A program made the translations under genes and the position numbers. DNA of 64,000 nucleotides, from contig CM068753.1 in the NCBI GenBank assembly GCA_035084275.1, positions 12,648,001 through 12,712,000 of the forward strand, given 5' to 3'. The notes under the pieces are model-generated. The model saw nothing but the letters and a program-made list of their open reading frames with translations, ran no database searches and had not been told where the DNA came from. Source of the stretch: Hydrolagus colliei. Taxonomy: Eukaryota. How positions within the stretch are numbered: position 1 is the stretch's first letter; every line of letters starts with the position of its first letter. Of the stretch, positions 32,880 through 41,442 are shown one piece after another.

Positions 32880-33065
<186 letters not shown>

Positions 33066-36650: not shown

Positions 36651-37063
36651 CCTCCTAGTATAGCTAGCTCCCGTGTAGTTTAACCTACAGCTTGTGGCTG
36701 CTTGCAGGTGATGGAGGGGAGGCTGTCACTTGGGTACATCCGTGCTGTCTAGGAAAATCTGGGGCATGGAAAGCAAATGCTTTTAACACGGCATCCTTTC
36801 CTCTCCCCACATTTTCCAGTCTGTGTATTCCATGGTGCTCAACCCACGTTCTTTCCATCTGCTTGCCTGGTGTTTTGCGTCATGTGCTTCTGCTTGCAGG
36901 CTACACATATTAACCCCACAAACCATTTGCTTATTTCATTTTTTTTCTCCTTTCCCCATCGCCTACCCCTTTGTGTGTGATTTTTGTTTTTGTTCCATCC
37001 CGATCCCCATTTGCCCTTGTTTGTCTTTCCATCGCATCTGCTTGACTGCTGCTATAAACCCAG

Positions 37064-37233
37064 GGTGCCATACGCACCAATTTGTCACTGCATAAGTGCT
37101 TTATCAGAGTAGAGGATGAGTTTGGGTCCTTTTGGACTGTTGATGATGAAGAATTTAAACGTGGCCGCCACATTCAACGAGGCCGTCCTCGAAAATACTA
37201 CCCTGATGAAAGCTTTGATGAACAATTTGCACA
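37064..37233 (+). CDS. FOXP1: Alternative mutually exclusive forkhead exon, orthologous to FOXP1-ES exon 18b (170 nt)
   Basis: aacccag|GGT...GCA CA|gtaaga; open frame [56 protein letters not shown](H); phase 0 in, phase 2 out, matching the flanking exons. Confidence 0.93.
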
Positions 37234-38964
37234 GTAAGAGCTTTTGCTTGCTACTATTTTGCTTCTGCTTCGCATTGCATGGTTACCATCTATCAAAACC
37301 TCTCCTGATTATTATTAATGTAAGCTAAGTAAGAATTGTTTTCTACAATGTATTTATTGTGTGCATTCTCCTTTCACTCGGTTTAAACTTGTCAAACTTG
37401 TCCGTTCCCTTCCTGTTGGAATTTGCCCAAATTCAAATTCATCCCAAACTTTAATGAATGATCTTACAAATTCTGCCGACAGAATATTTTTCAAGTACTG
37501 TAGTTGGTTTAAGGAAAGGTTCAGATGACAACAAGAAACTTTGTTCCCATCGTGTAGCTAGGCCACGTAGTCACTTCTCCCTATTCTGCCTTAGAGGAGG
37601 ATTACACACAAGGTTCTAATGTGTCATGTCAAAAGGATTTCAAACGAGAAACTATTGGAATGTATGTAGTGTACAGTATTATGACAGAGTGTTAAAATGG
37701 CAAGAATTTGCCTATTGGGTTTGCACAGTTGTGGTGGAAATGCCACCGCGAATAGATACAAAGAAGAATGTTAGCACATGTCCATTTAGACAAAGCAAAG
37801 CAAACCTAGAATAAAAGGCAGTATAAGCAGATTCATAAGAGAGATTTCAAAAAGCTAGACCCAATTGCTCCACCCAATTGTTGGTGTGAACACTAAAATG
37901 TACAATATCTCTGAGCATCCACAAGCTTCCCACCCTGAGAGAAGCAGTTACATCTCACTCCACGTCCTTCCCAGTCTTGTACAACACCCCAAAGTTCTCT
38001 GTAACATATAATGCACCAGCTAGTCACTATGGGAACCTGACAATTCATCATGAACATTAGGGCCAGTACATCACTTTCAGCTAAACCTGAAGCATTCAGC
38101 AACTCCATTCATCAAACCGAGAACTTTTCCTGTGTCAAACATGCTCAGAGCATTGAGCTATGATGCCCCAGGGCTCTCTGTCAACAGCCCAGTAAGATGA
38201 CACCACACCTGCATACGTTCACAATTCTGTTACAGTCGAGCCAATGTGAGACACTCTTTACTATTCACCACTTTCATTAAAGTGCAGAGCAGGTTTGTTT
38301 AGAGCAGCGTTTACGCACCGCCAAGTAATTGTGAAAGCAATGCACGATTTTCTGCAACTCTATAAAAGACTCTCTCTCAACATGCTACCTAACTGGAGGT
38401 ATTTAACACTTATTTTCAATGCAAATGTGAGGAGGCGGGGGAATTGTGAAAACGAGGGATAATTTGTACACTCTAGCGTGTGTGTTTTTTTTAATTTTTT
38501 ACTCTGGGCTTCCATGTGTAAGCTTCCAATTCAATTCCCTGACCCTCCCATAGCTTGGCTGAATTTCCCAAGATTTCATCCCCACTTATGCCCCGATTAT
38601 CCTCTCATGAATCATGACATAAACAGGGAGGAGGGTAAAAAAAAAGAGTCAATAGCTCTAAAAAGATGGGAACTCGAAAATCACCTTTTTAACTTAGGGG
38701 AGAGATTGCTAAACGGTTGTTCACTTTGACTTATTTGAATAATTCTGAAATGTCAACCCGTCCTTTCCTTTATTCCAACTGCAAAACAGAAAGAATTCTT
38801 CAATGAAAGAATTCTGAACGGCACCGTTAGTGTTTTAATCTGTTATGAAAACTCAGCGGAACCCTCTTCCTATCCTATCATGCTAATCTTTTATCTCATA
38901 ATAGCGATAATGATAATAATAATAATGCAATTTGATTCCTGTTTCCCTGATGCCCCTGTGCTGA

Positions 38965-40775: not shown

Positions 40776-40845
40776 CAACCCTTCTATCATAAAAAATATA
40801 CAGACCAGCCTTGGATATGGCTCACCTCTCAGTGCTGCTTTACAG
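40776..40845 (+). CDS. FOXP1: FOXP1 coding exon after the forkhead domain (70 nt)
   Basis: acgcag|C AAC CCT...TTA CAG|gtaaga; NPSIIKNIQTSLGYGSPLSAALQ. Confidence 0.94.
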
Positions 40846-41442
40846 GTAAGATCAGCGACTGGCACGCTTGGGTCTGCTGAGCCCAGAGTCTCCAAATTCC
40901 TTGTTCAATCCGCAAAATGACTCTCGCACTAATTAGATATTAAAATTTAATTTCTTTAAACTTTTTAAGTGCGCGAGGCATTAAAGCCCTGGGGCGGCCG
41001 CATTGTAAGCCACTGGAGCGTTCGCTGGTTGTTTCGCATTTTGAATATTGTGGCAAAAATTAAAAGTTCACTTATTAATATTTATCAGTGGTATCACAAT
41101 TTCCACCATCTTATTTCAGAATGTGGCTCGAGGCGAAAACACCACAAGTGTAATTACTCCGGCACAACTATTAATGTGCTGCAATGATGGGATTCAGTGT
41201 CACATGGCCCCCTATTGTTACCGACTATAAGGAGGAAGCACGAGGGCAGCTCGGTTTCTGTTATCATTAGCATATTTTTATCTTGAATCGTAGTTCAGTC
41301 AGATTTTCCCTGTCCTCCTCCTCTCCCCTCCCCTCCCACCACCGCCACCACCACCCCACTGCCAGTCGGGTTCATAACCCACTTCCGCTGCCAAAGGGAG
41401 GGTGTCCAAATCGATAGACATCTTTTGCTACGTCGTGGCACG

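Follow-up and report, generated by a model that had tools for sequence, protein, structure and literature searches.

Exon 18b of FOXP1 replaces the second half of the forkhead domain with an alternative version whose recognition helix is altered, and it also adds a tail in which the short basic stretch RGRPRK stands just past the domain. What is this stretch, and could it help the altered domain to read DNA? We examined a window of 64,000 nucleotides from Hydrolagus colliei (the whole stretch of DNA analysed; contig CM068753.1, positions 12,648,001 to 12,712,000) together with homologous proteins and loci, and conclude that the motif is real, deeply conserved and specific to the alternative exon; judging from sequence comparison, a role in the minor groove is likely.

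The exon itself is already known; the conserved motif past the forkhead domain appears to be unremarked. In the available part of their paper, Santos et al. (2011; PMC3002244) describe exon B as a tandem exon duplicate that occurs throughout Bilateria, has been retained by vertebrate FoxP1 and is expressed in fly neurons and mouse tissues, with a recognition-helix change from His to Thr and, in mouse, also from Asn to Gly. The work of Gabut et al. (2011), as conveyed in accessible passages of two reviews (PMC11701043, PMC5423462), credits the FOXP1-ES isoform with favoring CGATACAA and with contributing to pluripotency; the site as given in the former review (PMC11701043, same passages) carries no extra AT tract. 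The motif past the domain is not discussed in the accessible portions of accounts of FOXP1-ES and FoxP isoform B, and the word “hook” is absent from the main text of PMC3002244, PMC11998571, PMC8501956, PMC7776582, PMC9701222, PMC8189919, PMC13759329, PMC2570691, and PMC6372147. A 2024 list of about 100 AT-hook proteins (PMC11354804), in the part available, gave no matches for FOXP1, FOX, or forkhead. We found no prior report of an AT-hook on FOXP1-ES or on a forkhead wing 2 in the literature searched, which misses most subscription papers, including Gabut 2011, so that an earlier mention is possible.

The window exon is the same as that of Santos et al. and Gabut et al. in identity, position and helix changes (Table 1): it is a tandem second copy lying 3′ of the canonical exon that encodes the second forkhead half, it preserves the frame (its length gives a phase that fits the next exon), and GAIRT in place of NAVRH combines the His-to-Thr change with the vertebrate Asn-to-Gly change. 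A catshark FOXP1 isoform in the database contains the exon B junctions and is 100% identical over the 56 codons of exon B, and its other exons match the window at 71-95%. Pfam Forkhead matches codons 2-30 of the exon (23.7 bits), and a further forkhead exon match (62% identity) lies upstream of it. The preliminary description had placed RGRPRK within 37157-37195, and it is indeed there on the forward strand, in frame within an intact exon; the stop that follows the motif in the raw translation is intronic, beyond the donor, since the last two bases of the exon and the first base of the exon at 40776 together form a His codon. The same description took the canonical exon to end in QKRRPQKISG without a hook, which is supported by the homologues and by the upstream forkhead exon match, the canonical exon itself being unreadable in the window. 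YGCY is the motif of MBNL, and the YGCY words that flank exon B in both introns are likely to be MBNL sites, putative as these are from their sequence. MBNL1 represses inclusion of exon 18b (PMC8189919).

Table 1. Features of FOXP1 exon 18b and its surroundings in the window, and of the decayed copy of the exon in FOXP2 of the same genome.
Feature	Position	Strand	Remarks
FOXP1 exon 18b (FoxP exon B, FOXP1-ES)	37064..37233	+	170 nt, AG/GT ends, open frame
GAIRT, recognition-helix residues	37064..37078	+	replace canonical NAVRH (Asn to Gly, His to Thr)
KRGRHIQ	37157..37177	+	end of last forkhead helix and linker
RGRPRK, AT-hook-like motif	37178..37195	+	Trp+15 to +20 (Trp of last strand)
Acidic tail of exon B	37196..37233	+	alignment columns 45-56; conservation loose, vertebrates only
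Segment upstream of exon B	32949..33050	+	junctions in homologous proteins
Downstream exon	40776..40869	+	end approximate; its first base finishes the split His codon
YGCY-rich intron flank upstream	36850..37063	+	10 YGCY in 214 nt, against a window average of 1.2 per 100 nt
Downstream intron flank	37234..37300	+	4 YGCY in 67 nt
Dead exon B copy in FOXP2	L048:4458-4627 (G000:C13); also L002:1501-1670		

The motif has the core of an AT-hook, G-R-P with an arginine before it (RGRP at 37178-37189). AT-hooks carry basic residues within 1-5 positions on each side of the core (PMC4615771), and in exon B these are the RK after the core, the Arg before GRP, and, four residues ahead of that, another conserved Arg; the KR or KRP typical of HMGA proteins directly before the core is absent. 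The six frames of the window contain a single match to RGRP[RK][RK], compared with 0.03 per shuffle (30 shuffles), and RGRP[RK] arose in 208 of 200,000 shuffles of the 26-residue tail; bare RGRP is common enough (2 seen, being one site on both strands, vs. 1.0 expected). The motif codons (37177-37190) also form a short inverted repeat, so that the opposite strand too reads RGRPR; this is probably incidental, since invertebrate codons differ. Scoring with Pfam, which had been proposed as a check, came out against the AT-hook identity: AT_hook (PF02178) gave 12.8, 13.8, and 15.1 bits, below the gathering cut-off of 17.4 bits, and 14 homologues yielded five sub-threshold rows, nothing in the other nine, and none that passed. 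Four AT_hook matches above the cut-off are found in the same genome, the exon B motif not among them, and three of these four end in RGRPRK. Because the cut-off is missed, the motif is best called AT-hook-like: its core, its specificity to exon B and its conservation speak for the AT-hook identity first put forward, and the Pfam cut-off speaks against it. The sub-cut-off score would explain why automatic annotation misses the motif. The preceding KRGR, also pointed out earlier, is present but does not hold as a part or flank of the hook, as it aligns with the KRR at the end of the canonical helix and becomes xKRR outside vertebrates; of KRGRHIQ, among the matches listed, only R and H are common with the non-vertebrate consensus. 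Likewise, KRGR as a second hook was rejected, since it is a basic patch at the helix end that is not kept outside vertebrates.

We then pooled the best 120 of 157 and the best 150 of 491 matches (265 distinct proteins), placing each segment by the forkhead Trp and classing it by wing 1, with the tail not used. Among the matches listed, 121 out of 123 vertebrate-type exon B segments have R/H-GRPRK at Trp+15 (119 RGRPRK and two HGRPRK) and the other two end or skip before the motif, while RGRP is found in 102 out of 106 non-vertebrate segments (98 RGRPRK and four with other ends); these rows are not independent, as many come from primates and insects, and no tree stands behind the counts. The preliminary description had proposed to check invariance across vertebrates and would have taken a lack of conservation among orthologues as refuting; conservation holds far beyond vertebrates, so that this objection fails. 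The four non-vertebrate segments that lack RGRP diverge after RG, three of them from one leafhopper species, and the 106 are 107 minus P0237, a canonical-type segment misfiled by the wing-1 rule. In the diverging segments (P0124, P0126, P0215, and P0212) the next residues possibly fit read-through of an intron inside the motif. None of the 56 canonical-type segments among the matches listed has the motif within 40 residues, and three proteins are unclassified, one of them with the motif. Since the best 150 of the 491 already reach canonical exons, full-length exon B segments without the tail would have shown, and some did. The carriers named (15 of 20 proteins looked up) include fruit fly, mosquitoes, butterfly, wasp, beetle, water bug, copepod, barnacle, nemertean, and amphioxus; the snail keeps RGRP only. 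The amphioxus protein P0198 keeps RGRPRK, although the forkhead part of its exon B has diverged and the place of the canonical His is taken by Tyr rather than Thr. Seven gene models (P0011, P0033, P0041, P0046, P0048, P0049, and P0092) fuse the canonical exon to mid exon B, giving a canonical forkhead followed by the hook.

The constraint has clear borders. In a 50-sequence alignment G, R, and P are invariant, and among the matches listed the vertebrate and non-vertebrate consensus sequences agree at 26 of 31 columns in the forkhead part, 2 of 7 in the linker, all six in the motif, and 2 of 12 beyond it. Invariance in vertebrates alone was rejected as evidence, since most linker columns are equally conserved there; the vertebrate check first proposed would therefore have fallen short. 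RGRPRK is encoded at six of seven invertebrate-type DNA loci, two of them with identical codons, and silent codon differences occur at five of the six motif positions (six invertebrate-type loci plus the window), which argues that selection acts on the protein; on this comparison of codons and columns, we take the constraint to fall on the peptide and to be sharply bounded to the motif. The seventh locus (L016:175-250) has a stop before the motif's place, for which a sequencing error, an intron, or decay of the copy may be responsible.

The position of the motif invites comparison with wing 2 of other Fox proteins, many of which have an Arg run near Trp+17 to +21, in the same register. According to the available parts of the sources, FOXC2 and FOXG1 touch DNA with wing-2 residues (PMC8501956), wing 2 of FoxH1 contacts the minor groove flanking its core site (PMC9701222), and FOXP2, whose wing 2 is well ordered, does not touch DNA directly with it (PMC8501956). 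The shared register, together with the contacts of FOXC2, FOXG1, and FoxH1, makes it plausible that a tail of such length can reach DNA. AlphaFold2 models of the copepod and gecko homologues give a confident forkhead domain and place the motif as coil after the last helix at pLDDT of about 55, low confidence not being proof of disorder. The best fold-comparison matches are the FOXP3 and FOXP2 domains (2a07: Z 15.5, rmsd 0.9, 83 aligned), and the aligned part of the FOXP2-DNA structure stops four residues short of the motif. In other Fox chains, wing 2 overlapped with the low-confidence tail too weakly to be counted, and a PDB search with the 21-residue tail gave no matches at E-values up to 10.

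The same register raises the rival that survives best, which we nevertheless regard as unlikely: the motif may be a basic wing-2 tail, acting as a nuclear localization signal (NLS) or through non-specific backbone contacts, that replaces the basic stretch lost with the canonical exon. In its favor, two NLSs flank the forkhead domain of FOXP1 (PMC6212433), the wing-2 contacts of FOXC2 and FOXG1 are of this kind (PMC8501956, available part), and the KRGR of vertebrate exon B, standing instead of KRR, may weaken the canonical nuclear signal. The Arg-run register, together with the RGR without Pro seen in FoxO tails, means that a general basic tail could explain part of the motif. However, non-vertebrate exon B has the motif in addition to a KRR or RRR retained at the canonical site, and neither a nuclear signal nor a charge patch has an obvious need for an invariant Gly, an invariant Pro, or Arg over Lys throughout Bilateria. 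As a control we took 27 other Fox loci of the same genome, 24 of which could be anchored; each of these tails has 6-13 basic residues, and GRP occurs in none of the 24. The possibility that the motif is only an NLS, allowed for from the start, is therefore weakened by the retained KRR/RRR and by the invariant Gly and Pro, and keeps a minor share of our belief.

Less probable still is that the motif tunes exon-B isoforms without reading DNA, whether by binding RNA or a partner protein or as a site of arginine methylation. Some AT-hooks do bind structured RNA and proteins (PMC11354804, in its available part; PMC4615771), the conserved neighbors of the motif (Arg-His before, Tyr/Phe after) fall outside the HMGA pattern, and exon B has an altered wing 1 as well, acidic and conserved. 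On the other hand, none of the present results points to a partner, and DNA would be the nearest ligand beside a DNA-bound domain.

The last rival concerns the nucleotides, and a decayed copy of the exon bears on it. In the same genome, the homologous intron of a paralogue contains a copy of exon B; the canonical exon of this paralogue agrees with FOXP2 in 40 of 41 residues. This copy has kept its acceptor AG, lost its donor GT, and acquired three stops, and its motif reads RGQP-stop-K; it is the visible relic of the loss that Santos et al., in the accessible text, inferred from the tree (PMC3002244). It is identical to FOXP1 exon B at 133 of 168 bases (79%), the differences being spread 12/10/13 over the codon positions, and none of the six CpG sites in FOXP1 exon B survives in the copy; between the live upstream exons of FOXP1 and FOXP2, differences fall 3/4/17. 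That the dead copy is as near in DNA as the live neighboring exon (76%) suggests late death, nucleotide-level constraint, or gene conversion. YGCY words flank this copy too (8 in L002:1287-1500 and 3 in L002:1671-1737), and short intron stretches align between FOXP1 and FOXP2 around exon B. In the third FoxP-like gene of the genome (on contig C430), we found no exon B remnant within the 1.2 kb from the canonical exon to the contig end. That constraint on the nucleotides of a regulated alternative exon yielded the peptide as a by-product is very improbable. The vertebrate linker (its columns, among the matches listed, mostly as conserved as the motif), the closeness of the dead copy and the inverted repeat could be cited for it, but it is largely refuted by the other codons with which invertebrate loci encode the same residues. 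In addition, FOXP1 retains the three Arg codons of the motif that contain a CpG, each of which is altered in the dead copy.

We therefore favor, with some confidence, the reading that the motif, in the position of wing 2, acts as an AT-hook-like clamp on the minor groove. The forkhead helix would sit in the major groove and contact fewer bases there; the RGR core would settle into the neighboring AT-rich minor groove, adding affinity or a flank preference to a helix that is without the His contact in all exon B forms and without the Asn contact in vertebrates only. Nuclear import may be a further function of these residues. Besides the Pfam score and the non-basic left flank, the FOXP1-ES site without an extra AT tract, the wing 2 of FOXP2 with no direct contact, and the four segments and one locus in which the motif is missing speak against this reading. 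The preliminary description proposed that such a module offsets the loss of both contacts, of which at most the His part stands: among the matches listed, 78 out of 82 distinct non-vertebrate exon B sequences keep the Asn with the hook already present, so that the motif goes with the loss of His and predates the loss of Asn. More tentatively, and with the balance of our belief slightly against it, the FoxP splicing switch may since the origin of Bilateria have traded a major-groove reader for a two-part reader (a relaxed helix plus a wing-2 AT-hook), the hook having come first and allowed the vertebrate Asn loss; the stem-cell targets of FOXP1-ES and the fly-neuron targets of FoxP-iB would then depend on an unrecognized minor-groove module located beyond the point where the solved FOXP2-DNA chain stops.

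FOXP1-ES supports pluripotency and reprogramming, and the fly isoform B is tied to a form of learning; in their accessible portions, accounts of these isoforms attribute the DNA preference to two helix residues alone. A conserved hook, if true, would be a second determinant of that preference, and would represent a pairing of forkhead and AT-hook that is missing from the available part of the 2024 list. Constructs ending at the usual forkhead boundary would omit the motif. If the motif is only an NLS, it amounts to a minor annotation.

Among known systems, the closest in sequence are the HMGA hooks: in hook 1 of HMGA1 and hooks 1 and 3 of HMGA2, the last six residues are RGRPRK, as in exon B (PMC11354804, available part), and the exon B motif, like them, may be disordered when free. 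HMGA hooks have a basic or Pro left flank, whereas exon B has IQ or LS there, with the conserved Arg-His further back, so that a lone hook of this kind may bind weakly. Unlike them, the exon B motif is a single copy, scores below the cut-off, is joined to a forkhead domain, and is switched by splicing. In standing beside a DNA-binding domain it may be likened to PATZ1, ELF3, RFX5, and WhiB7, in which, according to the accessible text of PMC11354804, a hook assists a sequence-specific domain. Wing 2 of FoxH1, FOXC2, and FOXG1 is the same fold region as the motif; as far as their available descriptions go, it makes its contacts by folded helices or Arg runs, with no GRP motif, and in FoxP, unlike those proteins, the chain exits the sheet via a helix first. 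As for the exon B of Santos et al. (PMC3002244), the alignment in the available part of that paper comprises the first 28-30 residues and the model 76.
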